Source: Candidatus Bathycorpusculum grumuli
GTDB lineage: Archaea > Thermoproteota > Bathyarchaeia > Bathyarchaeales > Bathycorpusculaceae
Direction of reading: 5' to 3'
Assembly: GCA_009776805.1 (NCBI GenBank)
Contig: WRNB01000002.1
Span: 1-59,066, forward strand
DNA length: 59,066 nt
Under the pieces are notes generated by a model that was given only the letters and a program-made list of their open reading frames with translations, had not been told where the DNA came from and made no database searches. This document shows, piece after piece, positions 8,235 through 45,526 of the stretch; within the stretch, counting starts at the first letter, position 1; each line of letters starts with the position of its first letter. Made by a program: the position numbers and the translations under genes.

Positions 8235-8352
8235 TCTATCGTGGGTTTGTTTGGTTGTACAAACTGGAACCCATGATAGACTCTGTTTTTCCACGGCTAT
8301 CTATGATAAATATAACCCAAGTTTTATGCGAATAGTGCTCAGGTTTATTTAT
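8235..8352 (+). ncRNA. Candidate structured non-coding element, copy 1
   Basis: Hairpin TCTATCGTGGGTT...AACCCATGATAGA, linker ending ACGGCT, and a second long hairpin capped by GCGA (GNRA). Homologous to 30419-30526. Confidence 0.45.
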
Positions 8353-8376
8353 GTAATTAAATATGGCTAAACACGT

Positions 8377-8416
8377 ATATAAACTTAATTCAAGTTAGGT
8401 TAAAGTTAAGTTGATA
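8377..8416 (-). promoter_or_regulatory. Regulon promoter/operator motif with no adjacent CDS
   Basis: + strand atataa-N7-tcaa-N6-ttaa-N6-gttgata; same spacing as the other copies. Confidence 0.6.
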
Positions 8417-8474
8417 ATTGTTTGAGAGAACTAAAAAAAGAAGAGAGAACTATGCGAGTAAAAACGCATAATTA

Positions 8475-9704
8475 CTAATAGTAATAAGTATGTGTTGTGG
8501 GTGTACCTAAGAAATGCTCACACAGATACCTATTTACAGCCCCTACGTCAACATCTGCAAATAGATCAGGTTGAAGCCATTTTGCAAAAGCCAAATACCC
8601 AATTACTGAACGTGCACCATTTCGTGCATTAAAATCACAAACATAAACACGTCCATTCTTCACTGCATCAATATCCTTAAATTGTTGATTATTAAGCACA
8701 GCGTTTCTGGCATTAATAAAATCTTGAGAACTATGACTATTGCTAGAAATCATTACAATAATTACAGCAGGATTTTGTGCAACAATAAATTCCGGATTTA
8801 ACGCAGGATTGTATAATGTAACGTTTTCAGCTATGTTAATTCCACCGCCTTGACAAATAGATAAATCAACATAAGTCCTGTATTCCCCAGAAATGTACCA
8901 ATCCAAGAAGGCAAGATCTTGTTTGTCACGTGGTAAATTGTTTAGTTTGTCTTTGATCTGTTTGTTATAGGACTGTACCCATGTGATATACTCGTTTGCT
9001 CGATCTTCATTACCTACTAGAGCGGATAATTGTTTCACTGTGTAACAGATATCATCTATCTTTGTGTTAGCATTGTATATTTCTTGAGAAGACATTTTTG
9101 ATGGATTAATTGGTTGTGAATCCGCTGAGCTTTCAAGAAAAACCGGTATACCAGCTTTTGTAACTATGTTATAGGTATCTAAATCCGAATACGCAGGGTT
9201 AGAAGTATATCCAAATTGTGAGCTAGCAACTATTAGATCAGGTTCCATTACAAATATCGACTCTGCACTAGCCATAAAGGCCATTGATGCTATAGACGGT
9301 AATGTTTGAAGTTCTGGAGTTACAACAGTATCTGTTCTGGCTATAATTGAATCCTTTGCGCCTAGCAAAAATAGAATTTCTGCGAGGCTATCCTCCATGA
9401 CAATTATCCGCTTTGGTGTATCAGGTAAGGTAATTTTGACACCTGCGCCATCAGTAATTGTAACGGTTTTTGAATCAGAGCTGCTGGATGAAGAAGAACT
9501 AGATTTATTACGTGTGTCGGATGAGCTAGATGAGTTGGATGAGTCATCTGTTGATGAGGAGGGATTGTTGGTAGAAGGGTTTGATGATGATGGCAAGTTT
9601 GTTGAGGATTGTTTGTAGAATTCGTTGTAGACTGCATAGAAGGATACCGATGCTATGATGACAATAAGGGCTAGAGCAATTACTGTTTTGATTTTTGGAC
9701 CCAT
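8475..9704 (-). CDS. ABC substrate-binding protein, cobalamin/Fe-chelate (class III) family, paralogue A1
   Basis: N-terminal TM anchor, Ser-rich linker, ITDGAG...PKRIIV, EPDLIVA, AVKNGRVY. GGAGGTGA precedes ATG 9704. Confidence 0.88.
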   Translation of the reverse strand: MGPKIKTVIALALIVIIASVSFYAVYNEFYKQSSTNLPSSSNPSTNNPSSSTDDSSNSSSSSDTRNKSSSSSSSSSDSKTVTITDGAGVKITLPDTPKRIIVMEDSLAEILFLLGAKDSIIARTDTVVTPELQTLPSIASMAFMASAESIFVMEPDLIVASSQFGYTSNPAYSDLDTYNIVTKAGIPVFLESSADSQPINPSKMSSQEIYNANTKIDDICYTVKQLSALVGNEDRANEYITWVQSYNKQIKDKLNNLPRDKQDLAFLDWYISGEYRTYVDLSICQGGGINIAENVTLYNPALNPEFIVAQNPAVIIVMISSNSHSSQDFINARNAVLNNQQFKDIDAVKNGRVYVCDFNARNGARSVIGYLAFAKWLQPDLFADVDVGAVNRYLCEHFLGTPTTHTYYY

Positions 9705-9850
9705 TTTTTCACCTCCACACACATAGAATTAGTTTTAATTTTCCAAAAATTGGTATTATGATTATTTTCGATCCTACAAAGACTTGGGGTTATGATTGTT
9801 TTTTACTCTCCAGAGATTTAAGGTTTACCATTGGATTAGTCAACAACATA

Positions 9851-9890
9851 TTTAAATTTGGCCTTAACTTAAGTTAACTACCAGTTGAAT
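9851..9890 (-). promoter_or_regulatory. Regulon promoter/operator motif (upstream of SBP A1)
   Basis: tttaaa-tttggcc-ttaa-cttaag-ttaa-ctacca-gttgaat; the core TTAACTTAAGTTAA is a perfect palindrome. Confidence 0.75.
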
Positions 9891-9948
9891 TAAAAAAAGG
9901 AAAAATAAATGATTTTTCTATCCCGCACAAGTATAAGTGGACACAGAA

Positions 9949-12732
9949 TCAATCCACTATATAACATGCACGTATTTGATCGTTGCCTTTTGTATCAACA
10001 TAGACTTTATAACTACCCACATCATAAATACCAGCCGCATTATTATTAATAGAAAATGTTTCTTTAATTATCTTTGTCGTCGCATCGGAATAAAGTTCTG
10101 TAACAGTGATTGTAAGATCGTTTTTGTTACCATTAAGTTTGGTAACGAAAGCAGATGCAGTTACAGAGTCGAATGTGACAGTATCGGTATTCATCGCAAC
10201 TGAAAAAGAGAATTGATTCCATTCACGAAATAGTGCATCATTTTTTGTGCTATACCAGTTAACGGTGATGTCGTGCCCATTATTGCTAAAGGTTAGCAAA
10301 GCAATCATACCTACACCTTCGCGATAAAAGTCCATGTCCTGAGCATCCGTTAAAAGTTGTGGCACCTCATTGCCATACATGTTAGTATCTATTCGCATAA
10401 CTAAATCATCATAATGAATATGACCACACAATACCATAATGATGTTAGCATGCTGACTTACAAATTTGTCCCAAATTGCATCGCCACTGTTACCTGTAGG
10501 ATCATAACCACTCGAATTATCATATTCACCATTGTAAGATAGATATGAATGAGTTACTACAATCACATAACGATCAGTATTTGATGCTACAACCTCGTTA
10601 GCCCAGTCAAGTACAAAATTTCTGGGAGCCATTTCCAAACACAGTAACATATAGTCCGTATCATCTGCTGTGAAGTAATAGTATGCATTATCTAGTTTTC
10701 CTTCTTCATAAACACCGCCAAATATAGGGGTTTGTGAATACGTGTTGTAAGGAAAATATGTATTGAATAAATCAGTATCTCTATTGGTTATCAGACCGTT
10801 ATAGTCGTGATTGCCTGGAATAAACGCGTAGGGCACAACACCATCTAACTTGGCAAAATTGTATTGAACCCGTTCCCATTCCTCCACAGAGTTAGTGTCA
10901 GTAAGATCGCCTACCTGAATCATGAATTTTATATTGCGTGCCTCAGCATTGTTTTGTATCCAATCTATCATGGTATCTAGGACATCGGGATAGTACCGTG
11001 ACAAATTCTGAATATCGGGAACAACAGCAATTGTGTAATCACCTTCAGCAAACTCAGGAGCCAACCAGTCATGCCATATCTGTGCATCATTACCCTGTGT
11101 AGAGTGGTCTTTATAAATGCCATTTGATTCATCAAGCCACCAATTTACCATAAGACCCGCTGCATTACCATTGATGGGTGTGTTCATATTTTCTTGAATC
11201 TCTGTTTGGGTACGAATGATAGACCAAATGCGAATATCAGCTATTTCGCCAGGGAAACATCGAGGGTTATTTTCCAAATAGTCGCCACCAATCTTTAAGG
11301 GACGAATGGGTATGGTATTTTCCATTATTGAAAAAGTCTGCTCGTCTGCCTTGTTACCGTTGATATAACAAGTGATTCTATGGTTTTCATTGTCTTGCAC
11401 AATAGCAATATGAACCCAGTCCCCCAACTTTACGTTTGCGTAAGCAACATAATCCGCTACATTTCCGTTGCCTTCTTTCCAACATAACCAGGGGTTACCA
11501 TCTGCTGTTACTCCAAAGTTTATAGTATACAAGCCGTTAAAGCCATCAATTGCACCGTTACCTGTAATTACCCCGACATTCTGACTTGATGTCGGTATTT
11601 TCACCCAAGCTTCAAAGGTTTTTGGTGTAGCAGGAAGTTTCATAGTGGAAACAAGCTCGATAGTTCCAGAAGAAAAATCAGTTCCGATACCTGTAAAAGA
11701 GCTCAGGTATTTCTGAGTAACCGTGATGCTTAACTCTTTACTGTCATCACCTTTAGCGTTTTCCGCCTTGACAGTGAAAGCGGAAATGCCGCTATCTGTT
11801 GGAGTTCCAGATATTACACCGTTGCTTGATAAAGATAGTCCACTGGGCAAAGTACCATCAGTTATGCTCAACGTAACTTTGTCACCATATGTTACGAGTT
11901 TTTGCAGATATGGCAAACCGACTACACCATCTAGTAGTGTTTCAGTATTAATGGAAGGGAGACGATACGGTAATGCAGTGATTTTTATGTCATCATATGA
12001 ACCTGCTCCGCCTAAGCCCGTAATCAGACCGAAAGAACCATCCTCATACCGAGGGATTTTAGCATTTGCAACTACCAAAACATCATCGAAGTAGATGTCA
12101 CCGTATTCACCATAGACCTCAATTGTAATATGGACAAGCTCGCCATCAGACATATCTTTAGGTCCTGCACCAGAAGGAAAACTAAAATCTGGGTATGCGC
12201 TATTGGGTGTATATCCACCGAAGTACACTCCAAGGCCTTCAAGAAATGTGGTCTGGTAATAAAATCCTGCATACATAAGTGGACCCGCAGCCGTGAGCGG
12301 ATTTTGGTAATGCATGTCGAAACCTAAGCCAATATAGCTATAAGGTAGTAGACTGGGCTTAAACTGAAGGTTTGTCTCGAAACGGAAATTCTCTAAATAT
12401 GCCAAGTCCTCGCCAAAAGTGAGCATCGCCGGCAGGTCTGTAAAAACAGCATCAACATCTGAGGTATAGCTCTGGTGTAGTTTTCCATCTGAGACACTCC
12501 AGTCTCCAGTTAGGGCATTCCATCCTGTAGGAAGTTCGGTTAATCCATTAAAGTTCTGTTCGAGAACGATAATTTCTTCGGTGTTTGCTATTGGGATAGC
12601 TGTTTCTGTTGCCATAGTAGGAAAAATTGTGCCTGGCATTAAGACCAATAACAGAGACATTAATATGGCAAGTGAAAGTGTTTTGTGTAAAGACTTTGTG
12701 TATATACGGTTTCTACAAAGATTTAGATTCAT
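9949..12732 (-). CDS. Secreted multidomain calcineurin-like metallophosphoesterase (ConA-like + Ig-like + LamG + MPP + small C-terminal domain)
   Basis: Signal peptide. He_PIG-like repeat (GTLPSGLSLSSNGVISGTPT). LamG motifs (TFEAWVK, WVHIAIV, FPGEIADIRIW). MPP motifs VPDIQ, GDLTD, GNHD, THSY, CGHIH. Confidence 0.82.
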   Translation of the reverse strand: MNLNLCRNRIYTKSLHKTLSLAILMSLLLVLMPGTIFPTMATETAIPIANTEEIIVLEQNFNGLTELPTGWNALTGDWSVSDGKLHQSYTSDVDAVFTDLPAMLTFGEDLAYLENFRFETNLQFKPSLLPYSYIGLGFDMHYQNPLTAAGPLMYAGFYYQTTFLEGLGVYFGGYTPNSAYPDFSFPSGAGPKDMSDGELVHITIEVYGEYGDIYFDDVLVVANAKIPRYEDGSFGLITGLGGAGSYDDIKITALPYRLPSINTETLLDGVVGLPYLQKLVTYGDKVTLSITDGTLPSGLSLSSNGVISGTPTDSGISAFTVKAENAKGDDSKELSITVTQKYLSSFTGIGTDFSSGTIELVSTMKLPATPKTFEAWVKIPTSSQNVGVITGNGAIDGFNGLYTINFGVTADGNPWLCWKEGNGNVADYVAYANVKLGDWVHIAIVQDNENHRITCYINGNKADEQTFSIMENTIPIRPLKIGGDYLENNPRCFPGEIADIRIWSIIRTQTEIQENMNTPINGNAAGLMVNWWLDESNGIYKDHSTQGNDAQIWHDWLAPEFAEGDYTIAVVPDIQNLSRYYPDVLDTMIDWIQNNAEARNIKFMIQVGDLTDTNSVEEWERVQYNFAKLDGVVPYAFIPGNHDYNGLITNRDTDLFNTYFPYNTYSQTPIFGGVYEEGKLDNAYYYFTADDTDYMLLCLEMAPRNFVLDWANEVVASNTDRYVIVVTHSYLSYNGEYDNSSGYDPTGNSGDAIWDKFVSQHANIIMVLCGHIHYDDLVMRIDTNMYGNEVPQLLTDAQDMDFYREGVGMIALLTFSNNGHDITVNWYSTKNDALFREWNQFSFSVAMNTDTVTFDSVTASAFVTKLNGNKNDLTITVTELYSDATTKIIKETFSINNNAAGIYDVGSYKVYVDTKGNDQIRACYIVD

Positions 12733-12775
12733 AGTTATTTTTAACTCTCCTTAGTTAGTTTAACCAACCAATTTA

Positions 12776-12815
12776 TTTAAACTCTAGCTTAATTTAAATT
12801 AAGCTTTGGTTGAAT
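12776..12815 (-). promoter_or_regulatory. Regulon promoter/operator motif (upstream of metallophosphoesterase)
   Basis: tttaaa-ctctagc-ttaa-tttaaa-ttaa-gctttg-gttgaat. Confidence 0.75.
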
Positions 12816-12949
12816 AGAAATGTTGGTGAAAATATTTCTGCTATGCATAGCGCGATAAATACGTATATTCATTTTTTCTATTTGTAGAAAATCCAAGCTA
12901 ACTTTAGCACATGAAAAAAAAGGTGTGAATGTAAAGGTTAAATGCACAG

Positions 12950-14059
12950 TTATGGATAGCAGTAGACACCTATTATGGGTGTATCAAAGAATTGTTTGTT
13001 TATTTGCTGTGTTACATCTTCTAAGTCGATGTCTGTGAAGAGTTCTGGGTGAATACATTTTGCCCAATATAAGTAACCAATTATGGCGCGTGGTCCGTTT
13101 CGGGCACTAAAGTCACAAACATATACACGACCATTCTTTACTGCATCCACATTTTGGAGTTTTGGTTGATTAAGTATATCAGTTTTAACTGCAACAAAGT
13201 CATTGGCATCATGTGTGGAGCTAGAAATTAGCTCAATAATCACTGAAGGGTTCTGTGCGACAACAAATTCAGGGCTTAATGTAGCTGAGTACATTAATTG
13301 TTTATTTGCAATATTTACGCCACCAGCCTGATAAATACCTAAATCGCCCCATGTATTGTAGGGGTAGTCATACCAATCAAGAAAGACAGTTACTTGTTGG
13401 TCCTGAGGTAATGCCGCTACGCGGTCTTTGACAATCTTATTGTAAGATTGCGCCCAATTGACATATGCCGTTACTTCTTTTTGGTGTCCTACTATAGAGG
13501 TTAGGTTTTGCATTAAAGAGCATGTATGGTCTATTATTGTTGGGTAATTGTATAATTGTTCTGATGTCATGTCTATTGGATTTGTTAGGGGTTCGGGAGC
13601 GTTTGTGTTTGCAATGTATATGGGTATACCAGCGTTTTGAAGTTGTGGATAAGCACCTTCATTGTAGGTTATCAAGTTGCCAGAAATTATAATGTCGGGT
13701 TCTAGTTCAAGTACTTCCTCAACATTGAGGTAATAGGCATTTTCGCCTACAAGAGGTACGTCTATCATTGATGAGGGTAAAACGACATCGCCTGTTCGCC
13801 CTACTATCAAATTCTCAGCACCCATGCCACACAGAGTTTCTCCAAGACCTGCATCCATGACAATAACGCGTTTTATTGGGAGCTGTACGGTAACGGTATT
13901 GCCGACGCCATCGATAACGGTAATGGTTGTTGGTTTAGTGTTACGGGTAAACAAATTGTGAGATGATCCAGAGGAGTAGAATTCGTTGTAGATTATGTAA
14001 AGTGATGCTGTTGCAATTAAGGTGATAATAATTATATATATTACATGTTTTTTTGTCAT
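12950..14059 (-). CDS. ABC substrate-binding protein, cobalamin/Fe-chelate family, paralogue A2
   Basis: TM anchor; VIDGVGNTVTV, EEVLELEPDII, AVKNGRVYVCDFSARNGPR. Clearly paralogous to 8475-9704 and 30645-31826. Confidence 0.88.
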   Translation of the reverse strand: MTKKHVIYIIIITLIATASLYIIYNEFYSSGSSHNLFTRNTKPTTITVIDGVGNTVTVQLPIKRVIVMDAGLGETLCGMGAENLIVGRTGDVVLPSSMIDVPLVGENAYYLNVEEVLELEPDIIISGNLITYNEGAYPQLQNAGIPIYIANTNAPEPLTNPIDMTSEQLYNYPTIIDHTCSLMQNLTSIVGHQKEVTAYVNWAQSYNKIVKDRVAALPQDQQVTVFLDWYDYPYNTWGDLGIYQAGGVNIANKQLMYSATLSPEFVVAQNPSVIIELISSSTHDANDFVAVKTDILNQPKLQNVDAVKNGRVYVCDFSARNGPRAIIGYLYWAKCIHPELFTDIDLEDVTQQINKQFFDTPIIGVYCYP

Positions 14060-14133
14060 TTTTTCATCTTCCTTAAGAGTTAAGGGTGTTATTTTTCTAA
14101 AGTTTGAATACTAATTGGTAGCCAATTGATTTA

Positions 14134-14173
14134 TTTAAACATGTGCTTAACATAAGTTAACTATAAGTTGAAT
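14134..14173 (-). promoter_or_regulatory. Regulon promoter/operator motif (upstream of SBP A2)
   Basis: tttaaa-catgtgc-ttaa-cataag-ttaa-ctataa-gttgaat. Confidence 0.75.
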
Positions 14174-14210
14174 AGAATAAGATACAGACCTTCATAATCA
14201 ACAAAAATTA

Positions 14211-14250
14211 AATCAACCCATGATTAACTTAAATTAAGTAAAAGTTTATA
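14211..14250 (+). promoter_or_regulatory. Regulon promoter/operator motif, inverted, upstream of the + strand phosphodiesterase
   Basis: aatcaac-ccatga-ttaa-cttaaa-ttaa-gtaaaag-tttata is the reverse complement of the motif, matching the gene orientation. Confidence 0.75.
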
Positions 14251-14299
14251 ATCATAAGTCAACTCATTAACACACACATAAACACTAGGAGAGAAAACA

Positions 14300-15598
14300 G
14301 TGTTACAACAAATGCAGTCCCTTATAAAAAAAGAAGAACAACACTTCATTTACCCAAAATATCAAGACAACTGCATTTCAAACATACCTGACCTACTAAA
14401 AGAAAGCTTTGAAATATACAACAAATCAACAAACAAACTCTACAATCATGAAACAGAAAAAACATGCATAGAACAAAACAAAAAAATAATACTCATAATA
14501 ATAGATGGCCTAGGATACTCCCAATTCCTAAATCAACAAAAAAATGACCCCTTTTTAACAAAACTCACCAATAAAGGCATAGTTCGACCCCTAACAAGCG
14601 TTTTTCCCTCACAAACAACCAACGCCCTAACAACCCTAAACACAGGCCTAACCCCACAAGAACACGGACTCTTCGAATACTTCATCTACCTAAAAAACAT
14701 TGGAATAATAAACGCCCTAAAATGCGAACGCATCAACTCAAAGAAAAAATCCCTCATAGATGAAGACTTTAAACCAAACAATCTCCTCCTATCAAAAGAA
14801 AAAACACTCCATGAAACACTAAATGAAAAAGGCATTAAAACCTATACACATGCACACATAACCAACGCATTTAGCACTTGTTCAAACATAATTTTTCGAG
14901 GCAGCACCATAAAACCAGCATTAAACACATCAGACTCAATCGCAGGATTACGAAAAAACATAGAAGAAAACAAAGACAAAACCGCATACTTTTTCATACA
15001 CCTACCCACCACAGACACTATCGCCCATGAATATGGACCCAACAGCCCTCAATATTACACTGAATTATCAAATATAACATACCAACTACACAGAGAATTA
15101 ATACAGAAATTAGACCCAAAAATAGCTAAAGATACACTACTATTATTAACTGCAGATCACGGTGGAGTAGATGTAGATATAGAAAAAACAGTGTATATAC
15201 CAAAAACAGCCCTACCCCTACAAACCGGAAAAAATCATGAACCAATCGCACCTACAGGAAGCTATAGAGAAATTTTTCTACACATAAAAGAATCAAAGCT
15301 CGTTGAAACAAAATTATGGTTACTTAAAAAAATCGGCGACAAAGCCCAAATAATTGAAACCAAAGAAGCAGCAGAAAAAGGCCTATTTGGCATAGGCAAA
15401 GTTAGCAAAAGCTTTTTTGAAAGAGCAGGAAACCTACTAATTTTACCATACGGTAATGAAACCATATGGTTTGAAGGCCCAAACGAAAGAAGAATTAACT
15501 ACTTAGGACAACATGGAGGACTAAACAGACAAGAGATGATAGTACCCTTTGCAGTTGCTAACCTTAAAAATTTAAGAGAAAAAACAAACCAACATTAA
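14300..15598 (+). CDS. Alkaline-phosphatase-superfamily nucleotide pyrophosphatase/phosphodiesterase
   Basis: IIDGLG, SVFPSQT (nucleophile region), DTIAHEYG, TADHG, GQHGG metal-binding motifs. Confidence 0.85.
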   Translation: MLQQMQSLIKKEEQHFIYPKYQDNCISNIPDLLKESFEIYNKSTNKLYNHETEKTCIEQNKKIILIIIDGLGYSQFLNQQKNDPFLTKLTNKGIVRPLTSVFPSQTTNALTTLNTGLTPQEHGLFEYFIYLKNIGIINALKCERINSKKKSLIDEDFKPNNLLLSKEKTLHETLNEKGIKTYTHAHITNAFSTCSNIIFRGSTIKPALNTSDSIAGLRKNIEENKDKTAYFFIHLPTTDTIAHEYGPNSPQYYTELSNITYQLHRELIQKLDPKIAKDTLLLLTADHGGVDVDIEKTVYIPKTALPLQTGKNHEPIAPTGSYREIFLHIKESKLVETKLWLLKKIGDKAQIIETKEAAEKGLFGIGKVSKSFFERAGNLLILPYGNETIWFEGPNERRINYLGQHGGLNRQEMIVPFAVANLKNLREKTNQH

Positions 15599-15639
15599 AA
15601 CCTATCAAAAATCATCTATAAGCATACAGATGAGAAAAC

Positions 15640-16509: not shown

Positions 16510-16726
16510 CAATTTTATTATGCTAAAATATCTAAAAATTTACCTGCTGGCTCAAAGCACAAAATTTTTCAGTCATGTTGCATAACCTATCATTTTTCAT
16601 AAGAGTTCACCATTAACAAGTCAATACTGGAAAAACCATAAAAACAGACAATGTTTTCATGGAATGAACTAGTATGATTTATAGCAGCTATAGTTTTGAA
16701 AAAATGAGTTAGTTTTGCAATAGAGA

Positions 16727-30219: not shown

Positions 30220-30268
30220 TTATTCATATCTCCAAATGTATATGGCAGTAGTTAATCTAACCAAAGTA

Positions 30269-30308: not shown

Positions 30309-30418
30309 AACTTATCAACCTAACACACAAACATTTCAACACAAATTTAATTTAGCATTAGACACAACAATGCAAAAACTACCTCACTATCAAAAAAATA
30401 CAATATTTAGCTAAATTA

Positions 30419-30526: not shown

Positions 30527-30549
30527 AATAGATAATACCCAATCAAATA

Positions 30550-30589
30550 TATAAAGTTTAGTTTAAGTTAAGTTAATGTTTAGTTGATA
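30550..30589 (-). promoter_or_regulatory. Regulon promoter/operator motif with no adjacent CDS
   Basis: tataaa-gtttagt-ttaa-gttaag-ttaa-tgttta-gttgata. Confidence 0.68.
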
Positions 30590-31826: not shown

Positions 31827-31902
31827 TTTTTCACCCCCTTGAGCAGATGATTATTTTCAACTCTCCAAGAACAGGATATAATTGAAGTACCCAACCACCT
31901 TA

Positions 31903-31942
31903 TTTAAACCTAGTCTTAACTCAAATTAATCACAGGTTGAAT
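31903..31942 (-). promoter_or_regulatory. Regulon promoter/operator motif (upstream of SBP A3)
   Basis: tttaaa-cctagtc-ttaa-ctcaaa-ttaa-tcacag-gttgaat. Confidence 0.75.
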
Positions 31943-34660: not shown

Positions 34661-37600
34661 TTATTTTTCATTAGAACCCTCAAGCAGACCCTCTATGTTT
34701 AAGTAGAGTTTCTGCAACTCTTTTTTCGTTTCATCAGGAGCTTGCCACATATCACGATCAATAGCCTCCAAAAGCCGCTCAACCATATTTTGCAGGGCAT
34801 AAGGATTCACTTCTTTGAGCCATTCCTGCATGACTTTATCAAAAACATATTTTTTAGATAACTCCTCATACATCCAGTCTTCTACAACTTCTACTGTAGC
34901 ATCCCAGCCGAAAACGAAATCCACATTTCTAGACAAGTCAGCAGCACCCTGATACCCATGTTTTTTCATGCCTTCGATATATTTTGGATTAAGAAGACGA
35001 GAGCGGAAAACAAGACAGGTTTCCTCAGCAGTACTTCGAACTTTTACTCTGTTAGGATCTGAACTATCACCGCAGTATGATTTGGGCATTTTTCCGCCTA
35101 CAATTTTAACTGCATTTATCATACCGCCATGAGAGTCATACCAGTCATCACCGTCTAAAATATCGTATTCACGGGAATCCTGATTTTTAACGGTAACATT
35201 AATTTTTTTTAGACACCGTTTGAATTGTTCAGGTGTCTGTATACCATAGCTTTTACGGGTATAAGCATAACTACCCCAGTTAATGTATATGTCACTTAAA
35301 TCGTTTTGATCTTTCCAATTTTTAGAGTCTATAACCTCGCTTACACCACAGCCATATGCTCCAGGTTGGTCACCAAAAATTCTATAACAAGCCGCTTCCC
35401 TAGCTTTTATAACGTCTACGCCTTTGGCTGTTTCGTCCATTACCTCAGAGTCTACATGCTTAGCTATAAAATTTTGATTATGGGATTCTTTTAGTCCAGC
35501 AGCTAATTCAACAGCGGCATCAAGAAGGTTAACTACTACAGGAAAAGTGTCTCGAAATAACCCACTGATACGCATGGTAACATCTATGCGAGGACGTTTG
35601 AGTACTTCAAGAGGAATGGGTTCTACGCCAACAACTCGGCCGCTAGATCGTTCCCAAACAGGTTTAATTCCCATTAAATAAAGAATTTCTGCAATATCAT
35701 CCCCCTTAGTTTTCATAGTATCAGTTGCCCAAATTATAATACCAACAGATTCAGGATATTTCCCTTCTTCCTTTAGATACCGCTCAAGCAATACATCAGC
35801 TAAGGCGACTCCAACTTCCCATGCTGCAGGAGTTGGAACAGCACGAGGATCAACAGAATAAAAATTCCTACCAGTGGGTAAAATATCAGCCATACCTCGA
35901 GTTATAGAACCAGAGGGTCCAGGGGGCACGTAGCTACCTTGACAACCTGAGAGAGTATATGTTAACTCATCAGTTGTTGCAGCTAGAGCGGGAACAAGAA
36001 AACTGCTTATATATTGTAGGCATTGCTCTATTTTGGGGCTGCTGGTGCCCAACACTTCTTGTGATAAAGTTACAATTTTTTCTTCTTTGAAATCTGCTAA
36101 ATGAAATTTTTGAATTAAATCAAATGAGAGGATACTTATTTCTTTTAGATGATCCCCATTAGTTTTGCCATCACTGCCAAGTTTACCTCTATGTGCCAAA
36201 AGATTATCATAGTCAAAGCCTAATAACTCTGCAATTGACTGCCTTAAGGAAGGTACGTCACCATTATTGAGGCGTGTTAAAGTAACAAGGAATTTATCTA
36301 GGCGTAAATCTTTTGGAGCTTCACCTAAAATGTGGAGGCCGTCGCGAATTTGCGCATCAGATAACTCGTTTATGTATGCATGAAGTTGTTCTAGAAAGTC
36401 GTCAAAGGAGGCAAAGGCGGTGTCTTGTGTAATGTTTAGGTCTTTGTCAAGTTTAGCTGCAACTACGTTTTCCCAGATTATATTGCGTAAAACAGGTATT
36501 TTTTCAGGGTCAACTGTTTTAGCATGATAGTACTCTTGAAGTTGAACTTCTAATTTTGCAAGTTCGTCATAAGAGTCCGCATCATGCATAACAGGTACTA
36601 AATGGTCTATTATGCAACAGTAACTTCGACGTTTAGCTTGAGTACCTTCACCTGGGTTAGTTATAGTGTAAGGATAAATGTTGGGTAAGTCAGAAATAGT
36701 TATATCAGGAGAGCAAGATTTTGATAACCCAATAGATTTTCCTGGAAGCCACTCTAAGGAACCATGGCAACCTATGTGCATAATGACATTGGCACCAAAA
36801 ACGTCACGTATCCAACGGTAATAAGCGTAGTAATGGTGAGGCATAGATAAGTCTGGGCTGTGATATATACTAGCGGAGGTTTCCAAGTATCCACGGGGAG
36901 GCTGCAAGCCGATAAAGATATTTCCGTTTTTTAGCCCAGCGATTAAAATTTTACCGTTATAGGTATAAAGTTTTCCAGGATGCTTTTCCCAGTCCTTCTC
37001 CAGTTTAATAGCTACATCAGAGTTTAAATCGTTGAACCATTGTTCATATTGTTGAGGTGAAATTTTATCTAATGCCCTATCATTTAATTCTTGCGCACTT
37101 GCCCACCTGCGATCATTTGTTAACCCAGCAACTATGGTATCCATAAGTTTCTGGCTACTTTCAGGCAACGCATCTATGGTATAGCCTTGATTTTTTAGAC
37201 CTTGAAGAATGTTCATAACTGAAACAGAGGCATCTAATCCAAAAGCATGACCAATGGTGTCATTTCTTGGCGGATAATTATGGAAAATTATGGCCACTTT
37301 CTTTTGATTATTAGGTAATCGTCGTAGTTTACCCCAGTTTAAGGCTAAACAAACCACCTTTCGTGTTCGCTCTTCAATGTGTTCAAACTTTATTATGCGA
37401 GCCCCAGATGAAGTGGTTTGAGTGCAATCCATAGTGGCAACAGGCACTGTTATTAGGGCACCATCAAATTCAGGCATGGCAACATTAGCAGGAACATCCA
37501 TAATATTCAAACCCTGCATAGAGTCATGCCACTCCTCGAAAGTGTTACAGGTTGTTATAGCTTTAATTATTGGAACTCCAAGTTTTTTTAGGGTATCTGA

Positions 37601-38395
37601 AGCGTCAACACCAGAGAGACAAGTAGATAATGAAAAAGAAAATAAGCTTATTACAACATCTACAATCGGGGTGCCATCTTTTAAAAAGTAATTGTCAATT
37701 ACCCAATCTAACCCATGCATACCCAGTTTTGAATTTTTTGAACCAAAAAACACAGGTAATACATTAGCACCTTGAGCCTCAATTTCATGAATTACGGCAT
37801 CTATAAAACTGGTGTTGCCACCTTGCCACTGGCTCTGATGGAACCACAAACCCACAGTCAAACGATTAACATCAATTTTCTTTTCTACATATTCAGTTAA
37901 AGAAGGCACATAGTTGAAATGAGGATGGTAAATGCCTTCCCAAAGAGGCTTAGCTGGAGCCTCAAAAGTGTAATCAGCCCCTATGAAACGATTTGCAAGA
38001 TAATAGAAGAGGTTTTCAAAATTTGTTTTACCACCATAATTAAGATAGAAAAAAATTTTTTGTTTATCTTCTGCTTGCACGGTTGTAAATTTAGTTTGTT
38101 CTTTGCCTCCAAAGAAGGGAGCAGAAACCATAAGGGGTACTTTGGCAATTTTTAGAGCTTCAGCTAACTTGTCAAACTCAGGTAAGTCACCCATTAAATG
38201 TACAAGGACTATATTGGCTTTTTTGGAAATTTCTATGAAATTGTCTAAAGTGCCAAAGTCCCGAAAGTCGCCACTTGAACGTAAACATAGGTCAATGGCA
38301 TTTGGGAATTTTTCGTTTATCGTTTTTGCAGCTGATGTAGCTGGAATGGTATCTGTTGGAATTGTTGTTACAAGAGCTATTTTTAGTGTTCTCAT
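34661..38395 (-). CDS. cobN: Cobaltochelatase CobN-like (class I chelatase large subunit)
   Basis: 1244 aa; HIGCHGSLEWLPGK, YPYTITNPGEGTQAKRRS, ILPTGRNFYSVDP, RPRIDVTMRISGLFRD, RSRLLNPKYIEGM. Confidence 0.95.
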   Translation of the reverse strand: MRTLKIALVTTIPTDTIPATSAAKTINEKFPNAIDLCLRSSGDFRDFGTLDNFIEISKKANIVLVHLMGDLPEFDKLAEALKIAKVPLMVSAPFFGGKEQTKFTTVQAEDKQKIFFYLNYGGKTNFENLFYYLANRFIGADYTFEAPAKPLWEGIYHPHFNYVPSLTEYVEKKIDVNRLTVGLWFHQSQWQGGNTSFIDAVIHEIEAQGANVLPVFFGSKNSKLGMHGLDWVIDNYFLKDGTPIVDVVISLFSFSLSTCLSGVDASDTLKKLGVPIIKAITTCNTFEEWHDSMQGLNIMDVPANVAMPEFDGALITVPVATMDCTQTTSSGARIIKFEHIEERTRKVVCLALNWGKLRRLPNNQKKVAIIFHNYPPRNDTIGHAFGLDASVSVMNILQGLKNQGYTIDALPESSQKLMDTIVAGLTNDRRWASAQELNDRALDKISPQQYEQWFNDLNSDVAIKLEKDWEKHPGKLYTYNGKILIAGLKNGNIFIGLQPPRGYLETSASIYHSPDLSMPHHYYAYYRWIRDVFGANVIMHIGCHGSLEWLPGKSIGLSKSCSPDITISDLPNIYPYTITNPGEGTQAKRRSYCCIIDHLVPVMHDADSYDELAKLEVQLQEYYHAKTVDPEKIPVLRNIIWENVVAAKLDKDLNITQDTAFASFDDFLEQLHAYINELSDAQIRDGLHILGEAPKDLRLDKFLVTLTRLNNGDVPSLRQSIAELLGFDYDNLLAHRGKLGSDGKTNGDHLKEISILSFDLIQKFHLADFKEEKIVTLSQEVLGTSSPKIEQCLQYISSFLVPALAATTDELTYTLSGCQGSYVPPGPSGSITRGMADILPTGRNFYSVDPRAVPTPAAWEVGVALADVLLERYLKEEGKYPESVGIIIWATDTMKTKGDDIAEILYLMGIKPVWERSSGRVVGVEPIPLEVLKRPRIDVTMRISGLFRDTFPVVVNLLDAAVELAAGLKESHNQNFIAKHVDSEVMDETAKGVDVIKAREAACYRIFGDQPGAYGCGVSEVIDSKNWKDQNDLSDIYINWGSYAYTRKSYGIQTPEQFKRCLKKINVTVKNQDSREYDILDGDDWYDSHGGMINAVKIVGGKMPKSYCGDSSDPNRVKVRSTAEETCLVFRSRLLNPKYIEGMKKHGYQGAADLSRNVDFVFGWDATVEVVEDWMYEELSKKYVFDKVMQEWLKEVNPYALQNMVERLLEAIDRDMWQAPDETKKELQKLYLNIEGLLEGSNEK

Positions 38396-39222
38396 TGTTG
38401 CATCCCCATTTTTTCTTCAAATAATGCAGACATTTTTGGATCGAGAAGGTTAATGTCCTCAACTATTGGTGTAACTACAGGTTTACCCGTGATAGAATGG
38501 GAAACATCGGTCTTAATTTCATAAACCTCTTCGATGTTTTGGGCAGTTAACACCTCTTCAGGAGTACCTGTTGCATAAACGCGTCCACGTTTAAGCATAA
38601 ATAATCTATCAGAAAAACGGCTGGCTAAATTCAAATCATGTAACGTTACAATGACGGCGTGTCCTTTACTTTTAGCAAGACTCTTAAGTATACAAAGAAT
38701 GTCAAGCTGATGTTTAATATCTAAAGAACTTGTAGGCTCATCTAGTAACAAAATTTGAGGTTGCTGTGCAAGAGCTCGAGCGATTATAACTTTTTGTTGC
38801 TCACCTCCACTAAGGGCAGAAAATTGACGCATCGCAAGATGACTAATACCTAAAAGATCCATCATTTGAACAACAATCTCATTATCCTGCTCACCTACAC
38901 TCCAGTGAACATAGGGCTTTCTGCCCATCATTACTACGTCATATACCGTGAATGGAAAAGCACTTATAGATGTTTGAGGAACATACCCCATTAATTTAGA
39001 TAATTCCTTAGTAGAAAATTTACTTGCATCTTTACCATCAAGAAGTATACTATTTGGACCTGTTTTCAAAATACGGTTAACACATTTTAATAAAGTACTT
39101 TTCCCTGAACCATTAGGACCAACAATAGATACCAATTCACCTAACTCTACATTCAAAGCTATATCTTTTAAAATTGGAATACCTGCATAACTAAATGAGA
39201 GGTTATTTATAGTTAATTTCAA
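38392..39222 (-). CDS. BtuD/FecE-type ABC ATP-binding protein
   Basis: GPNGSGKST, LSGGEQQK, LLLDEPT, HDLNLASRF. Confidence 0.92.
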   Translation of the reverse strand: MKLTINNLSFSYAGIPILKDIALNVELGELVSIVGPNGSGKSTLLKCVNRILKTGPNSILLDGKDASKFSTKELSKLMGYVPQTSISAFPFTVYDVVMMGRKPYVHWSVGEQDNEIVVQMMDLLGISHLAMRQFSALSGGEQQKVIIARALAQQPQILLLDEPTSSLDIKHQLDILCILKSLAKSKGHAVIVTLHDLNLASRFSDRLFMLKRGRVYATGTPEEVLTAQNIEEVYEIKTDVSHSITGKPVVTPIVEDINLLDPKMSALFEEKMGMQQ

Positions 39223-40292
39223 CCAAAATCACGTCTCCGTTTACGTATTAATAAATAAATAAAGAAGGGAACTCCAAGTAGTGAGGTTATAATACCAACG
39301 GGAATTTCTATAGGCATCATAATTAACCGTCCCACAGTATCTGCGCCAAGAAGCATAAAAGCACCCAATAATGCACTACATGGGATGAGATATCTATAGT
39401 CAGTACCAACTAGCATTCTTGCAATGTGTGGGGCAATTAAATCTACAAACCCGATAATTCCAGTAAAAGAAATTATACTTGCAGTTGCAACAGTTTCCAA
39501 AATCATATTAATAGATAAAACACGTTTAGAATTAACACCTAAACTAACAGCTACATCTTCACCCATACTTAAAACATTAATATTCCAAGCTTGAGACATC
39601 ATAAGAATCATGGTAACGGCAACAATAGGGAAACAGATCAAAATATTTTGCCAAGATGTCGTGTAAAGTCCACCCATAAGCCAAAAAACAATAGCTGATA
39701 CCGCATTTCGTTCAGGCGCAATATATTGTATTAGAGAAAGCAACGCTGAAAAAAGAAAACCAACGGCCACACCAGCTAAAATTATCGATTCAGAACTCAT
39801 ACCACTCATACGGGCAATTAAATAAACCACTACCATAGCTAGTAAACAAAAAACAAAAGCGTTACCGATTATAAGAAAACCACCTATGGTAGCAATGCTT
39901 ACACCAAAAACTATAGCTAAAGCAGCACCAAATCCAGCAGCTGAAGAAATACCTAATATATAAGAAGAAGCCAGAGGATTACGTAAAATTCCCTGCATAG
40001 TCGCGCCAGCAGCAGCCAATCCAGCTCCAGCTATTAAGGCCATAACAATTCTTGGCAAACGAATAGTCCAAATTATTGTCTCAGTAAGAGATGACACAGG
40101 GCCTAAATTTAAAAAAGGAAAAATTTTAGAAAAAATAACAGTTAACGCTTCGCCAAGTCTAGGAGAAGCGGCCCCAAAGCTAAGAGAAACCACTGCCGTC
40201 ACAATTAAAGCTAAGAAAAAGGAAAAAATTATAAAAAATTTTTTCTTCTTACCTTTACTGTATAGTTTCTTTACATCAGCTTTCGTAGTCAT
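39219..40292 (-). CDS. BtuC/FecCD-type ABC permease
   Basis: IRLPRIV, QGILRNPLASSYILGISSAA, MGEDVAVSLGV, IGFVDLIAPH, EIPVGIIT. Confidence 0.92.
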   Translation of the reverse strand: MTTKADVKKLYSKGKKKKFFIIFSFFLALIVTAVVSLSFGAASPRLGEALTVIFSKIFPFLNLGPVSSLTETIIWTIRLPRIVMALIAGAGLAAAGATMQGILRNPLASSYILGISSAAGFGAALAIVFGVSIATIGGFLIIGNAFVFCLLAMVVVYLIARMSGMSSESIILAGVAVGFLFSALLSLIQYIAPERNAVSAIVFWLMGGLYTTSWQNILICFPIVAVTMILMMSQAWNINVLSMGEDVAVSLGVNSKRVLSINMILETVATASIISFTGIIGFVDLIAPHIARMLVGTDYRYLIPCSALLGAFMLLGADTVGRLIMMPIEIPVGIITSLLGVPFFIYLLIRKRRRDFG

Positions 40293-40329
40293 CTATATCT
40301 AAACATCCAAAGTGTTGTCAACATATCTC

Positions 40330-42327
40330 CTAGTTGTTAACAGGCATCCTATAGGGATCATGAAAGAGCTCGGTTCTAACGGCTGAAGCTATAGGTGCGG
40401 CGCGTAATTCTTCTAAACGTAAATATTTACTGCCCATAACTTCAGAGATTTGTTTAACTAATCCAAAAGTGAGAAAACCCTGTTCAGTATCTATAGCAAT
40501 TGATTGTATACCTTTAGAGGCAATTTTACATGCAAGCTGTTTAGCCTCTTCTACGGGGTCACCACCGTAAAGGTTAACATTTGCTCGTCCATCGGAAACT
40601 AACACCAATAGAGGGAGATCGTCAGTTCGAAGAGAAGACTCAACAGCATCTAAGCCGAGTTTTAATCCATGTACTAAGGGTGTGCGGCCACCTGTTGGCA
40701 AATTGGATAAGTATTTTTGGGCCAATTCAATACTATTAGTAGGAGGTAGAATAAGTTCTGCCGAGTTTTTACGAAAAACTACCATACCTACACGATCTCT
40801 ACGTTGATAGGCATCCAATAGAAGGGAAAGAATAGCTCCTTTAGTAGCACTCATACGCTCCTCGGCAGCCATTGAGCCACTAGCGTCGACAACAAACATA
40901 ATCAGGTTACCCATTTTTGTTTCTCTGACTTTTTCACGTAAATCACATCTCTCAATTAGGAGAGCATTTTGGGAATTGCTTGTTACTTCTTTTCGTCGCT
41001 TTTGGAAAAGGGCTGCTGTGCGAAAAGTTGCATCAAAAGCTAAATCGGTAACTTTACCATGAGGAATCGTGCTTGCTACATAATGACCTCTTTTAGAGTC
41101 ACTAATTATTTTTGAACGACGACCTGATCCATGGCGTTCAATTTCATCAAGGGCATCTGATGAGAACGGTTTTACAGTGTATGGAGAAGCTGCTTGGAAA
41201 ATTTGTTCTTTTGTAGGATCTTCTTGTTCATCGGGTTGGTTATTATCTGAAGAGTTATCGTTATTATTTTGTGGAGGTGTTTGTCGGTCTTCATTCCATT
41301 TTTGTATGCTTTCATTAAGTTGTTGCTGTTCCATTTTAGGTTCTTCGAAGGGTTGGCGGCGTTGGCGGTGGGGAAGGACTAATTCAGCTGCTTCTTTGAT
41401 ATCTTCTTCTGTAACGTCTATGCGGTCATTGTAAGCGGCAATGGTACATGCTGTTTTGTACATAACTATGTCTGCACGGTGTCCGTCTACGGCGAAGTCG
41501 GTACAAATTTGTGTTATTAAATCTAGTAAATCTGAGCTTAGTTTTACCTTAGGTAAAAGTTGGGTTGCAGATAGGATTTTTTGTCGTATTTTTTCTTGAT
41601 TATCTATTTGGAGGGAGATAAAAGATAGCGGGTTGCTTTCAAAGGCAATGCGGCGGCGTACTATTTCGGCCCGGGCCTCTTTATAGGGTATTCCTTTTAC
41701 TTCGACTGATAGTGCGAAGCGATCTAAAAGTTGTGGTCGAAGTTCTCCCTCTTCAGGGTTCATTGTTCCTATTAAAACAAAATGTGAGGGGTGACTAAAT
41801 GAAACGCCTTCGCGTTCAACAAAGTTTATGCCCATTGCTGCGGCATCGAGTAAAACGTCAACTAGGTGGTCATCAAGTAAGTTGACTTCATCAATGTAGA
41901 GTATGTTACGGTTAGCTTGAGCTAGAATTCCGGGGTCGAAATGTTTCTCGCCAGTTTTTATGGCTTTTTCAATATCTATGGTGCCTACTAAGCGGTCTTC
42001 TGTGGCACCTACTGGTAATTCAACTACAGAAACAGATCGTTTGGTAATTGGTAATTTTTCATTTTTTACATTTTTTGTGGCACATGCTTCACATAGGTCT
42101 TTGAGATTTTTTGGATCACAATAGAAAGGGCAGTTAGTAACAGTTTCTATTTCGGGTAATAGATTGGCTAGAGCACGTACAGTTAAGGATTTACCGGTTC
42201 CTTTTTCTCCTCTTAATAGGACTCCGCCTATTTTTGGGTTGATTACATTTAGAATTAGGGCTAGTTTCATTTTTTCTTGACCGACAATAGCACTAAAGGG
42301 GTAGACTATTTTGTTTTGTAGCTGCAT
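40330..42327 (-). CDS. chlD: ChlI/ChlD-type chelatase ATPase (AAA+ fused to vWA)
   Basis: [38 protein letters not shown]; acidic/Asn linker; MIDAS motif DASGSM. Confidence 0.9.
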
Positions 42328-42368
42328 GTCCTAAATCTCCACCTGTTAAAGAAATATTCAATAAAGAA

Positions 42369-42408
42369 TATAAATTATTGTTTAACTAAAATTAATATCG
42401 AGTTTATA
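42369..42408 (-). promoter_or_regulatory. Regulon promoter/operator motif heading the chelatase operon (degenerate distal box)
   Basis: tataaa-ttattgt-ttaa-ctaaaa-ttaa-tatcga-gtttata; an extra GGTTGA lies just distal. Confidence 0.6.
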
Positions 42409-45525: not shown

Positions 45526-45526
45526 A

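Follow-up and report, generated by a model that had tools for sequence, protein, structure and literature searches.

A candidate regulon for corrinoid capture, import and salvage in Bathyarchaeia that includes a fused nitrogenase-like enzyme

Why should an enzyme of the nitrogenase-like (NFL) superfamily be encoded in one operon with an importer, and in one island with binding-protein, chelatase and salvage genes? The question is raised by a ~34-kb island at positions 8235-42408 of contig WRNB01000002.1 of Candidatus Bathycorpusculum grumuli (GCA_009776805.1), which was studied within positions 1-59,066 of that contig (the window hereafter, 59,066 nucleotides in all). The open reading frames (ORFs) of the window were scanned with Pfam and NCBIfam profiles, and the curated NCBIfam cut-offs were used as family thresholds; a best match below cut-off means that the top NCBIfam model for a protein did not reach its curated threshold. 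Every gene family that a first-pass annotation of this DNA had listed was recovered at the coordinates in Table 1, and an alpha/beta hydrolase that it had not listed was added to the island. Operon A consists, in order, of genes for the substrate-binding protein SBP3, a FecCD permease, an ABC ATPase, a NifH::NifD-like fusion protein and a NifK/BchB-like subunit, with the ATPase and fusion genes overlapping by 4 nucleotides and the fusion and NifK-like genes by 11. Operon B encodes ChlI/D, FecCD, an ABC ATPase, CobN, CbiZ, and the ATPase and permease of an ABC-2 exporter. The answer that we favour, and to which the sequence evidence gives in our judgement a somewhat better than even chance, is that the island is a single Bathyarchaeia regulon for the capture, import and salvage of cobamide-type corrinoids, in which the NFL enzyme would reduce the imported corrinoid.

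The transcription units of the island share a promoter motif: TCAAC, 5-6 bases, the palindrome TTAAyTTrrGTTAA, 7-8 bases, and the TATA box TTTAwAT. The motif was first spotted by reading the intergenic regions, and a regular-expression search of the window then returned 11 distinct sites, all inside 8377-42420 and none in the remaining ~25 kb. In 100 dinucleotide-type shuffles the mean was 0.02 sites, and no shuffle contained more than 1. An identical 39-bp geometry is common to ten of the 11 sites. Every transcription unit is preceded by the motif except the small membrane ORF at 24004-24459, which lacks a motif and is therefore a doubtful member of the island; two of the sites head a conserved structured RNA instead of an ORF. 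The same motif was found 5' of orthologous SBP, importer and phosphodiesterase genes in eight contigs from Bathyarchaeia relatives (loci L001, L004, L006, L010, L011, L090, L091 and L092), whose proteins are 52-75% identical and whose G+C content is 38-46%. A tight consensus was obtained from 23 genuine 39-bp copies, the standard-spacing sites of the window included, and the motif was not found in ~1.4 Mb of non-Bathyarchaeia loci. Both the restriction of the sites to the island and their conservation before orthologues bear out the co-regulation asserted in the first-pass annotation, and on this promoter evidence the island's units form one predicted regulon. The palindrome, which abuts the TATA box, resembles the binding site of an archaeal repressor or activator. 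Family scans for such a regulator revealed no helix-turn-helix protein among window ORFs of at least 100 amino acids.

The association of the fusion enzyme with importer and salvage genes recurs in other genomes. The core SBP-FecCD-ATPase-NifH::D-NifK was present in every Bathyarchaeia relative examined, at 52-75% identity. Around this core, L091 has the contiguous order CobN-CbiZ-ABC2-ABC2-SBP-SBP-FecCD-ATPase-NifHD-NifK; in L092 the LamG-Metallophos gene adjoins the NFL module; L001, L006 and L010 have the phosphodiesterase gene as a neighbour of the NFL operon; and L011, from a complete Bathy-6 genome, has FecCD-CbiZ-NifHD-NifK-SBP. In Methanococcoides vulcani (L020) the row is CbiZ-ChlI-ChlD-TIM barrel-SBP-FecCD-ATPase-NifHD-NifK-CbiK-CobN-HD protein, and both Methanolobus loci (L008 and L016) contain CbiZ, an importer, NifHD, NifK-like and CbiK genes. 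An Anaerovoracaceae locus (L031) encodes NifH::D, NifK-like, an ABC-2 exporter, DUF1638 and CobN, nearly the order seen in Methanomassiliicoccales (L032), where the sequence ends before any CobN position. The exporter directly follows the K-like gene in L006, L010, L031 and L032, and CbiZ adjoins the fusion enzyme in four archaeal lineages. The synteny survey that the first-pass annotation had put forward as a check therefore finds the NifH-fusion clade together with cbiZ, btuFCD-type importers, cobN/chlID, cbiK and ABC-2 exporters in several independent lineages.

Two further observations concern the composition of these loci. The bacterium of L031 and the methanogen of L032 share the order malic enzyme, NifH::D, NifK-like, ABC-2 exporter, DUF1638, and a gene order so nearly identical suggests recent transfer between domains. 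Bacterial neighbours are otherwise mostly heterogeneous (sensor kinases, a YgjP peptidase, a DAO oxidoreductase, a hydantoinase-like protein), the sole consistent extra partner being a xylose-isomerase-like TIM-barrel protein; its gene lies beside that of the fusion enzyme in L020 (4496-5545, +) and in Sporobacter L022 (845-1882, +), in the latter as the first gene after a B12 riboswitch.

What substrate do these systems handle? The first-pass annotation had named cobamides, heme and F430 together. The tetrapyrrole link appears real, and the sequence contexts point to corrinoids, the B12 family, over heme or F430. The strongest evidence comes from riboswitches. We scanned 19 bacterial fusion-clade loci against Rfam, with seven loci (147 kb) containing other nitrogenase-family genes as controls. 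Ten cobalamin riboswitches (RF00174) were found in 7 of the 19 loci, and none in the 147 kb of control sequence. In Sporobacter termitidis (L022) and in metagenome-assembled genomes (MAGs) of Peptococcaceae (L023) and Xanthobacteraceae (L027), RF00174 stands directly before the operon, which in the Xanthobacteraceae MAG additionally encodes a TonB-dependent receptor together with btuFCD-type proteins. In L009, L012, L013 and L017 (Tepidibacter, two Marinisporobacter MAGs and a Desulfomonilaceae MAG) the riboswitches lie within the cluster. Immediately 5' of NifHD, Marinisporobacter has a gene for a DUF71 protein with the ENGEFH signature. This signature defines the DUF71-B12 salvage subgroup, whose genes in bacteria cluster with btuCDF and show an anticorrelation with CbiZ (PMC3541065). 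The CbiZ neighbours, the BtuF/BtuC/BtuD-like matches of the importers and the cbi genes of L090 also argue for corrinoids. Of the three substrates proposed, corrinoids are thus favoured and heme is weakly supported, whereas scavenging of F430 was rejected, since nothing spoke in its favour and termite-gut Bathyarchaeia lack Mcr (PMC7886697).

The L090 relative (73% identical) carries a CbiK/X-CbiC fusion, CbiD, CbiT, CbiG, four TP_methylases and HemA at 9097-16281 (-), 1.5 kb downstream of the same operon; CbiJ was not seen in the stretch of L090 available, in which the cbi region is incomplete. The window itself contains no cbi/cob methylase, CbiP or CobA family among the window-wide family scans, as the first-pass annotation had reported, but the extension of that absence to the organism as a whole is not supported, given the genes of L090, and B12 auxotrophy was rejected on the same genes. 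A near-complete corrin pathway has been reported for Bathy-6 genomes, in which the BtuFCD-CbiZ pair was also noted (PMC11697101).

In the window no RF00174 match was obtained at gathering score, nor at E<=10 in leader-like regions. The archaeal island looks like a functional counterpart of the bacterial cobalamin-riboswitch regulon; in bacteria, relatives of the fusion enzyme lie in or beside RF00174-controlled clusters and adjoin DUF71-B12, btuB and btuFCD-type genes. Unlike that regulon, the island is apparently controlled by a palindrome-binding protein and co-regulated small RNAs. As a separate observation, neighbouring B12 riboswitches in L009, L012 and L013 (Tepidibacter, Marinisporobacter) head genes for secreted DUF4430 proteins, which are followed in the same direction by genes for very large PQQ/beta-propeller and prenyltransferase-like surface proteins; these DUF4430 and large surface proteins are possibly B12-capture proteins.

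The importer proteins were compared with families of defined specificity. The five class III substrate-binding proteins (SBPs) belong to two subfamilies, SBP3 and SBP4 being BtuF-like and SBP1, SBP2 and SBP5 divergent; N-terminal membrane anchors are predicted for all five, and for the LamG-Metallophos and CARDB proteins. Among solved structures, SBP3 matches the B12-binding protein 5ysc best (1.7e-33), and its match to the BtuF NCBIfam model (1.9e-33, 115.8 bits) lies under the cut-off of 234. For permease A the top model is the B12 permease BtuC (325 bits, under the cut-off of 461), to which permease B is likewise closest. ATPase A is best matched by a corrinoid ABC transporter ATPase (325 bits, cut-off 537), with its C-terminal extension covered. 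This extension of ~170 residues carries the MJ0874 label (PF27219) in orthologues and is spanned by the haloarchaeal corrinoid ATPase model; ATPase B is without it. The nearest described arrangement is the BtuFCD and CbiZ system for cobinamide salvage in Halobacterium and Methanosarcina, and in Bathy-6 (PMC11697101), in which a class III SBP, FecCD and a long BtuD-type ATPase likewise adjoin CbiZ; haloarchaeal corrinoid transporter models are the best family matches here, with their curated cut-offs unreached. That system, in contrast, comes without an NFL enzyme, CobN/ChlID, an ABC-2 exporter, a surface phosphoesterase or a polyferredoxin, whereas here two importers and five SBPs stand under one operator motif.

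CbiZ of the island is full length, matching profile positions 2-191 of 191 of PF01955 at 163.2 bits (cut-off 27). CobN (TIGR02257) and the ChlI/D motor (TIGR02442) are encoded in the same operon and both score above their cut-offs, as cobaltochelatase family members, and against solved structures CobN scored 818 bits with CobN, 553 with ChlH and 391 with HmuS. The pair thus resembles cobaltochelatases of the CobN-CobS/T or CobN plus ChlI/D-like type. Unlike the aerobic CobN system, it is found in an organism that is strictly anaerobic and has relatives with the early-insertion chelatase CbiK/X; hydrogenobyrinic acid a,c-diamide, the known substrate of CobN, is not a product of the anaerobic route. 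CobN could insert cobalt into imported metal-free corrinoids, or it could act in the reverse direction, as HmuS does. Precedent for reversal is provided by the Hmu system of Bacteroidota and BtuS1/2 of Bacteroides fragilis, in which a CobN-family protein is again encoded with metallo-tetrapyrrole uptake in a gut anaerobe: HmuS has been proven to dechelate heme, and Bacteroides requires BtuS1/2 to make use of heme iron (PMC12583661, PMC6460266). The island differs from Hmu in its lower similarity to HmuS and in its CbiZ and B12-type context, and family scans detected no HmuY/HmuR-type or TonB-receptor genes in the window.

The NFL enzyme has the parts expected of its superfamily. Its NifH domain (PF00142, 328.8 bits) retains the P-loop and both cluster cysteines in the motifs GKGGIGKS, CAGRG and VCGGF, and the two catalytic parts match PF00148 at 199.5 and 244.5 bits. 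With a P-loop ATPase, cluster cysteines and Oxidored_nitro subunits all present, it is a member of the superfamily in the broad sense. The D-like domain retains three Cys at P-cluster positions; in profile alignment to NifD, non-Cys residues stand at the FeMo-co ligand Cys275 and the alignments stop before the His442 region. The NifK/BchB-like partner has one invariant and one mostly conserved Cys. This pattern would fit a simple inter-subunit [4Fe-4S] cluster such as those of DPOR, COR and CfbD, all of which have tetrapyrrole substrates. Both the NifH and the D-like domain were present in 120 of the 120 homologue clusters listed, and the fusion is therefore no assembly artefact. Relatives of ~1100 amino acids (P0062-P0081, P0068) have two tandem NifH domains before the D-like domain, the equivalent of a covalent Fe-protein dimer attached to its catalytic partner.

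None of the characterised classes accommodates the enzyme. A true nitrogenase NifHDK was rejected on scores of 352.7 for nifH (cut-off 394), 121.8 for nifD (654) and 66.5 for nifK (427) and on the lack of a Cys275 equivalent and of the full set of six P-cluster cysteines. CfbCD was rejected because CfbC reached 341 (cut-off 402), the CfbD model misses the D domain and gives the partner 39 bits (cut-off 268), and a K-like partner is always present. DPOR and COR were rejected at 219.8 for BchL (cut-off 345), 176 for BchX (331), 132 for BchB (490) and 65 for BchZ (529), the BchB match being the best that the partner subunit obtained in NCBIfam. The NifH domain scores about equally with NifH and CfbC and far higher with these than with BchL. 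The enzyme nonetheless resembles DPOR (BchLNB), COR (BchXYZ) and CfbCD in combining a NifH-type reductase with NifD/K-type subunits, in its simple-cluster cysteines without a FeMo-co Cys ligand, and in its tetrapyrrole-related gene context. It differs from them in that reductase and D-like subunit form a single polypeptide (in some relatives with two tandem NifH domains), in that its operons are those of uptake and salvage instead of biosynthesis, and in that it remains under every curated cut-off. Tetrapyrrole reduction has also been proposed for the Group VI nitrogenase-like genes of Elusimicrobia (bioRxiv 10.1101/765248; PMC13474568), an assignment that, like ours, comes from gene context alone and concerns proteins without NifB and FeMo-co ligands. 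Group VI, however, has separate H, D and K genes among radical SAM genes and a NifH that branches beside the chlorophyll group, whereas the NifH domain here is fused, is nearer to NifH/CfbC than to BchL by profile score, and has importers, CbiZ and chelatases as neighbours.

The two motif sites without an ORF head copies of a ~150-nucleotide element with an invariant GCCGU.GAGAAA, a strong 3' terminal hairpin and no ORF called inside, which we read as a putative family of small RNAs controlled by the regulon. Homologues follow the same motif in L001 and, as two tandem copies between the enzyme operon and the cbi genes, in L090. Single-sequence folds of the five copies gave z = -6.0, -2.6, -3.9, -1.4 and -3.4, and the hairpin arms appear, judged by eye, to covary among copies. 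RNAalifold applied to a MAFFT alignment of the five yielded 13 weak pairs at -3.2 kcal/mol, a poor consensus due to misaligned hairpin arms, so that the structure rests on the single-sequence folds. A known RNA family or a recognisable cobalamin riboswitch was ruled out by Rfam scans, in which nothing reached gathering score in the window, nothing in L090 reached E<=1, and the small-RNA regions gave only chance-level matches at E<=10. The nearest minus-strand ORF to copy A, 7438-7839, starts ~390 nucleotides downstream; it overlaps a second ORF, 7517-8053 (+), and neither has a family match.

How might these parts work together? We suggest that corrinoids would be bound at the surface by the membrane-anchored SBPs (two BtuF-like, three divergent) and by two surface proteins, LamG-Metallophos and CARDB, the latter together with its NapH-like polyferredoxin, and that the two BtuCD-type importers would carry them inside. 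There the NifH::NifD-like/NifK-like enzyme, presumably translationally coupled to importer A, would spend ATP-driven low-potential electrons on the incoming corrinoid. Most likely the cobalt would be the target, and its passage from Co(III)/Co(II) to Co(I) would enable adenosylation by an enzyme encoded elsewhere and hence the action of CbiZ, returning cobinamide to the pathway as adenosylcobyric acid. Cobalt-centred reduction is favoured because CbiZ requires an adenosylated substrate and the Co(I) step is energetically hard, and because reduction is logical after chelation, just as CobR follows CobNST in the aerobic route; reduction of the macrocycle stays the alternative because it is the only tetrapyrrole chemistry known in the family. 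CobN and the ChlI/D motor may move cobalt into or out of metal-free or mis-metallated corrinoids. The 'metal swapping' and 'macrocycle reduction' of the first-pass annotation stay hypothetical. The phosphodiesterase and the alpha/beta hydrolase should be cytoplasmic, since neither has an N-terminal anchor and the phosphodiesterase has no signal or transmembrane segment, and could trim the nucleotide loop, while the ABC-2 pump could expel by-products. A transcription factor binding the palindrome would take the role of the bacterial B12 riboswitch, and the two co-regulated small RNAs probably widen the response.

Several points weigh against a corrinoid salvage regulon with a cobalt-reducing enzyme. 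To our knowledge, all characterised tetrapyrrole NFL enzymes reduce ring C=C bonds, and we know of no metal-centred precedent in the family. The importer proteins lie under the curated BtuF, BtuC and BtuD cut-offs, SBP1, SBP2 and SBP5 show a weak likeness to siderophore-type binders, and ATPase B is barely over the cut-off for heme ABC ATPases (265.8 versus 261). An 'aerobic'-type cobaltochelatase has no obvious place in a strict anaerobe when relatives of that organism have CbiK/X. In about half of the bacterial loci with the fusion clade, the available flanks show neither an obvious corrinoid gene nor a riboswitch. The motif could respond to iron or cobalt instead of B12, and among public sequencing runs part of the region was found in two DNA contig sets, while two runs of the same study were without it and no RNA run was found.

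An NFL enzyme that acts on tetrapyrroles could also be biosynthetic, reducing the ring in de novo corrin synthesis (for example, standing in for the cobalt-precorrin-6A reductase CbiJ) or in an unidentified archaeal tetrapyrrole pathway, with the importers merely co-regulated. We consider this unlikely, though it is the one rival that keeps an appreciable probability. It would suit the closeness of the L090 cbi genes to the operon and the lack of CbiJ from the stretch available, the adjacent CbiK genes of Methanolobus and Methanococcoides, and the ring-reducing chemistry of the family; B12 riboswitches, moreover, control biosynthesis genes too, and Loh et al. proposed an unidentified tetrapyrrole biosynthesis pathway (PMC7886697). 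It fits poorly with enzyme genes that overlap the importer ATPase gene and that share one operon with SBP-FecCD-ATPase in all Bathyarchaeia loci, Methanolobus L008, Methanococcoides and the Xanthobacteraceae MAG, and with the recurrence of the salvage-specific CbiZ and DUF71-B12; the absence of CbiJ, for its part, is not established in an incomplete cbi region. Import of heme or siderophores for iron is a different matter: CobN/ChlID would then serve as an HmuS-like dechelatase, porphyrin or heme would be what the NFL enzyme reduces, and protoporphyrin would leave through the ABC-2 exporter. The HmuS and BtuS1/2 precedents, the score of ATPase B, the siderophore-binder-like SBPs and the consistent presence of the exporter lend themselves to this scheme, but CbiZ within CobN's own operon, the far higher score of CobN with CobN than with HmuS, the BtuF/BtuC affinities of SBP3 and the permeases, the bacterial cobalamin riboswitches, and the DUF71-B12 and cbi neighbours make it improbable.

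Regulation by B12 need not mean action on B12. The NFL enzyme might be a B12-independent back-up for a B12-dependent reaction, induced with the uptake genes when B12 is scarce, like bacterial metE/nrd. B12-independent isozymes commonly stand under B12 riboswitches, the characterised NFL enzymes of Group IV break C-S bonds and supply methionine synthesis (PMC13474568), and the NifH domain stands as close to NifH and CfbC as do proteins of Group IV. The contexts examined, however, contained neither sulfur or methionine genes nor a NifB-like gene; the cysteines fit a simple cluster and not a complex cofactor, and the operons are tight ones with corrinoid importers, CbiZ and chelatases, so that we hold this idea to be more improbable still. 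That the units are functionally unrelated, the motif being a generic strong archaeal promoter with no pathway behind it, seems to us very improbable indeed: a TATA box with an AT-rich upstream region is common in a 37% G+C genome, but the motif has no copy among the ~20 other genes of the window against the 0.02 expected by chance, it has a fixed 39-bp geometry with a palindrome, it is kept before the same families in relatives of 38-46% G+C, and the families are linked in lineages that lack it.

The remaining features of the locus can be stated briefly (Table 1). The window has a G+C content of 37%, against a published value of 37.8% for termite-gut Bathyarchaeia genomes (PMC7886697), and its edges carry archaeal housekeeping genes, e.g. 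for a Tsr3-type ribosome biogenesis protein. The nearest relatives of the fusion protein, at 75% and 72% identity, come from 'Candidatus Bathyarchaeota/Bathyarchaeia' genomes, and several of the related contigs stem from samples with identifiers that agree with termite-gut bins. Beyond the island, and without the promoter motif, are two export-type ABC systems, one MacB/FtsX-like and the other a second ABC-2 (44236-46210 and 48307-50101, both -), and a 1436-amino-acid surface protein (50274-54584, -) with Listeria-Bacteroides repeats, DUF7601 and a hydrophobic C-terminal region. In L001 (18152-22160) and L004 (15637-22193) the island has as its neighbour the 11-subunit Fpo-like [NiFe] hydrogenase cluster known from termite-gut Bathyarchaeia, which is missing from this position in the window.

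Table 1. Positions and strands of the island's genes, promoter motif sites and small-RNA-like elements in the window, with homologous elements of two relatives
Feature	Position (strand)	Match or score	Remarks
Small-RNA-like element, copy A	8227-8376 (-)	minimum free energy -39.5 kcal/mol, z -6.0	ends approximate; directly after motif
Motif	8377-8414 (-)	regular-expression match	heads small-RNA-like element A
SBP1, class III substrate-binding protein, divergent subfamily	8475-9722 (-)	Peripla_BP_2 1.6e-19	transmembrane residues 6-24
Motif	9850-9888 (-)		heads SBP1
Surface protein, He_PIG + Laminin_G_3 + calcineurin-like phosphoesterase (Metallophos)	9949-12732 (-)	Pfam	N-terminal anchor
Motif	12775-12813 (-)		heads Metallophos gene
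SBP2, divergent subfamily	12950-14059 (-)	Peripla_BP_2 2.4e-21	L001 orthologue also with motif
Motif, divergent pair	14133-14171 (-), 14213-14251 (+)		for SBP2 (-) and phosphodiesterase (+); same pair in L001 at 16406-16525
Type I phosphodiesterase / nucleotide pyrophosphatase family	14300-15598 (+)	Phosphodiest 2e-25	
Alpha/beta hydrolase	15640-16509 (+)	Abhydrolase_1 1e-19	same orientation as phosphodiesterase; kept in L001
NifK/BchB-like second catalytic subunit	16727-18040 (-)	Oxidored_nitro 2.3e-72	
NifH::NifD-like fusion	18030-20186 (-)	Fer4_NifH 3.5e-98 + Oxidored_nitro 1.1e-58	
Importer A, ABC ATPase	20183-21511 (-)	ABC_tran	C-terminal MJ0874-type extension
Importer A, FecCD/BtuC-type permease	21522-22601 (-)	FecCD 2.1e-97	
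SBP3, BtuF-like	22635-23579 (-)		first gene of importer-NFL operon
Motif	23617-23655 (-)		heads importer-NFL operon; orthologous position kept in L004, L006, L010, L092
Small membrane protein	24004-24459 (-)		five transmembrane segments
NapH/MauN-like membrane polyferredoxin	24815-26401 (-)	Fer4_5 + Fer4; NapH subfamily 7e-23	six transmembrane segments; orthologue in L001
CARDB surface protein	26456-28741 (-)	CARDB 1.8e-08	N-terminal anchor; upstream partner of polyferredoxin
Motif	28925-28963 (-)		heads CARDB-polyferredoxin unit
SBP4, BtuF-like	29116-30219 (-)	Peripla_BP_2 2.2e-35; BtuF 3.5e-32, under cut-off	
Motif	30268-30306 (-)		heads SBP4
Small-RNA-like element, copy B	30399-30548 (-)	minimum free energy -38.9 kcal/mol, z -2.6	ends approximate; directly after motif
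Motif	30549-30587 (-)		heads small-RNA-like element B
SBP5, divergent subfamily	30645-31826 (-)	Peripla_BP_2 5.9e-20	L011 (Bathy-6) homologue after CbiZ-NFL genes
Motif	31902-31940 (-)		heads SBP5
ABC-2 exporter	32245-33854 (-)	drrA 336 bits, above cut-off of 312	permease 32245-32994; DrrA-type ATPase 32991-33854
CbiZ (adenosylcobinamide amidohydrolase family)	33851-34639 (-)	PF01955 9.1e-48	
CobN-type class I chelatase large subunit	34661-38395 (-)	TIGR02257 1036 bits, above cut-off of 822	
Importer B, ABC ATPase	38392-39222 (-)		
Importer B, FecCD/BtuC-type permease	39219-40292 (-)		
ChlI/ChlD-type AAA+ and VWA chelatase motor subunit	40330-42327 (-)	TIGR02442 'putative cobaltochelatase' 794.6 bits, above 779	
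Motif	42368-42420 (-)		variant TCAAC spacing; heads ChlID-to-ABC-2 operon
Small-RNA-like homologue, L001	13756-13905 (-)		after same motif
Small-RNA-like homologues, L090	7946-8095 (+), 8348-8497 (+)		after same motif

We found no publication describing a link between NFL enzymes and corrinoid salvage in the literature searched, and the linkage appears to be unpublished. The statement of the first-pass annotation that no described pathway combines these parts appears correct within that literature, where the closest items were the BtuFCD-CbiZ pair of Bathy-6 (PMC11697101) and a single sentence on a 'NifDH homolog' in termite-gut Bathyarchaeia, which placed it, as probable, in a tetrapyrrole biosynthesis pathway yet to be identified (PMC7886697). 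The nitrogenase-like superfamily was reviewed in July 2026, and that review mentions neither fused NifH-NifD forms nor a corrinoid-linked group, and holds gene context to be of little help for uncharacterised groups (PMC13474568). Context is unusually informative here, as importers, CbiZ/DUF71-B12, chelatases and riboswitches assign a large and widespread clade to corrinoid metabolism. We tentatively propose, as a possibility to which we give rather less than an even chance, that the NifH::NifD-fusion clade is a new NFL class, an ATP-driven corrinoid reductase (cobalt- or ring-centred) that supplies the missing low-potential step of anaerobic B12 salvage in Bathyarchaeia, methylotrophic methanogens and gut Firmicutes alike. 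The Bathyarchaeia enzyme would be part of a B12-responsive regulon in which the place of the cobalamin riboswitch is taken by a protein operator and structured small RNAs of a new family. Its function is directly testable, since Methanococcoides vulcani, Methanolobus, Clostridium tetanomorphum and Tepidibacter hydrothermalis, which carry members of the clade, are cultured.

Such an enzyme could fill a gap in how anaerobes reduce salvaged corrinoids ahead of adenosylation, and it could account for the long-puzzling CobN/ChlID homologues of anaerobic archaea. We know of no use of B12 riboswitches in archaea, and the conserved operator and small RNAs would offer an entry to how archaea sense B12, a vitamin whose exchange shapes communities of gut and sediment where Bathyarchaeia abound.

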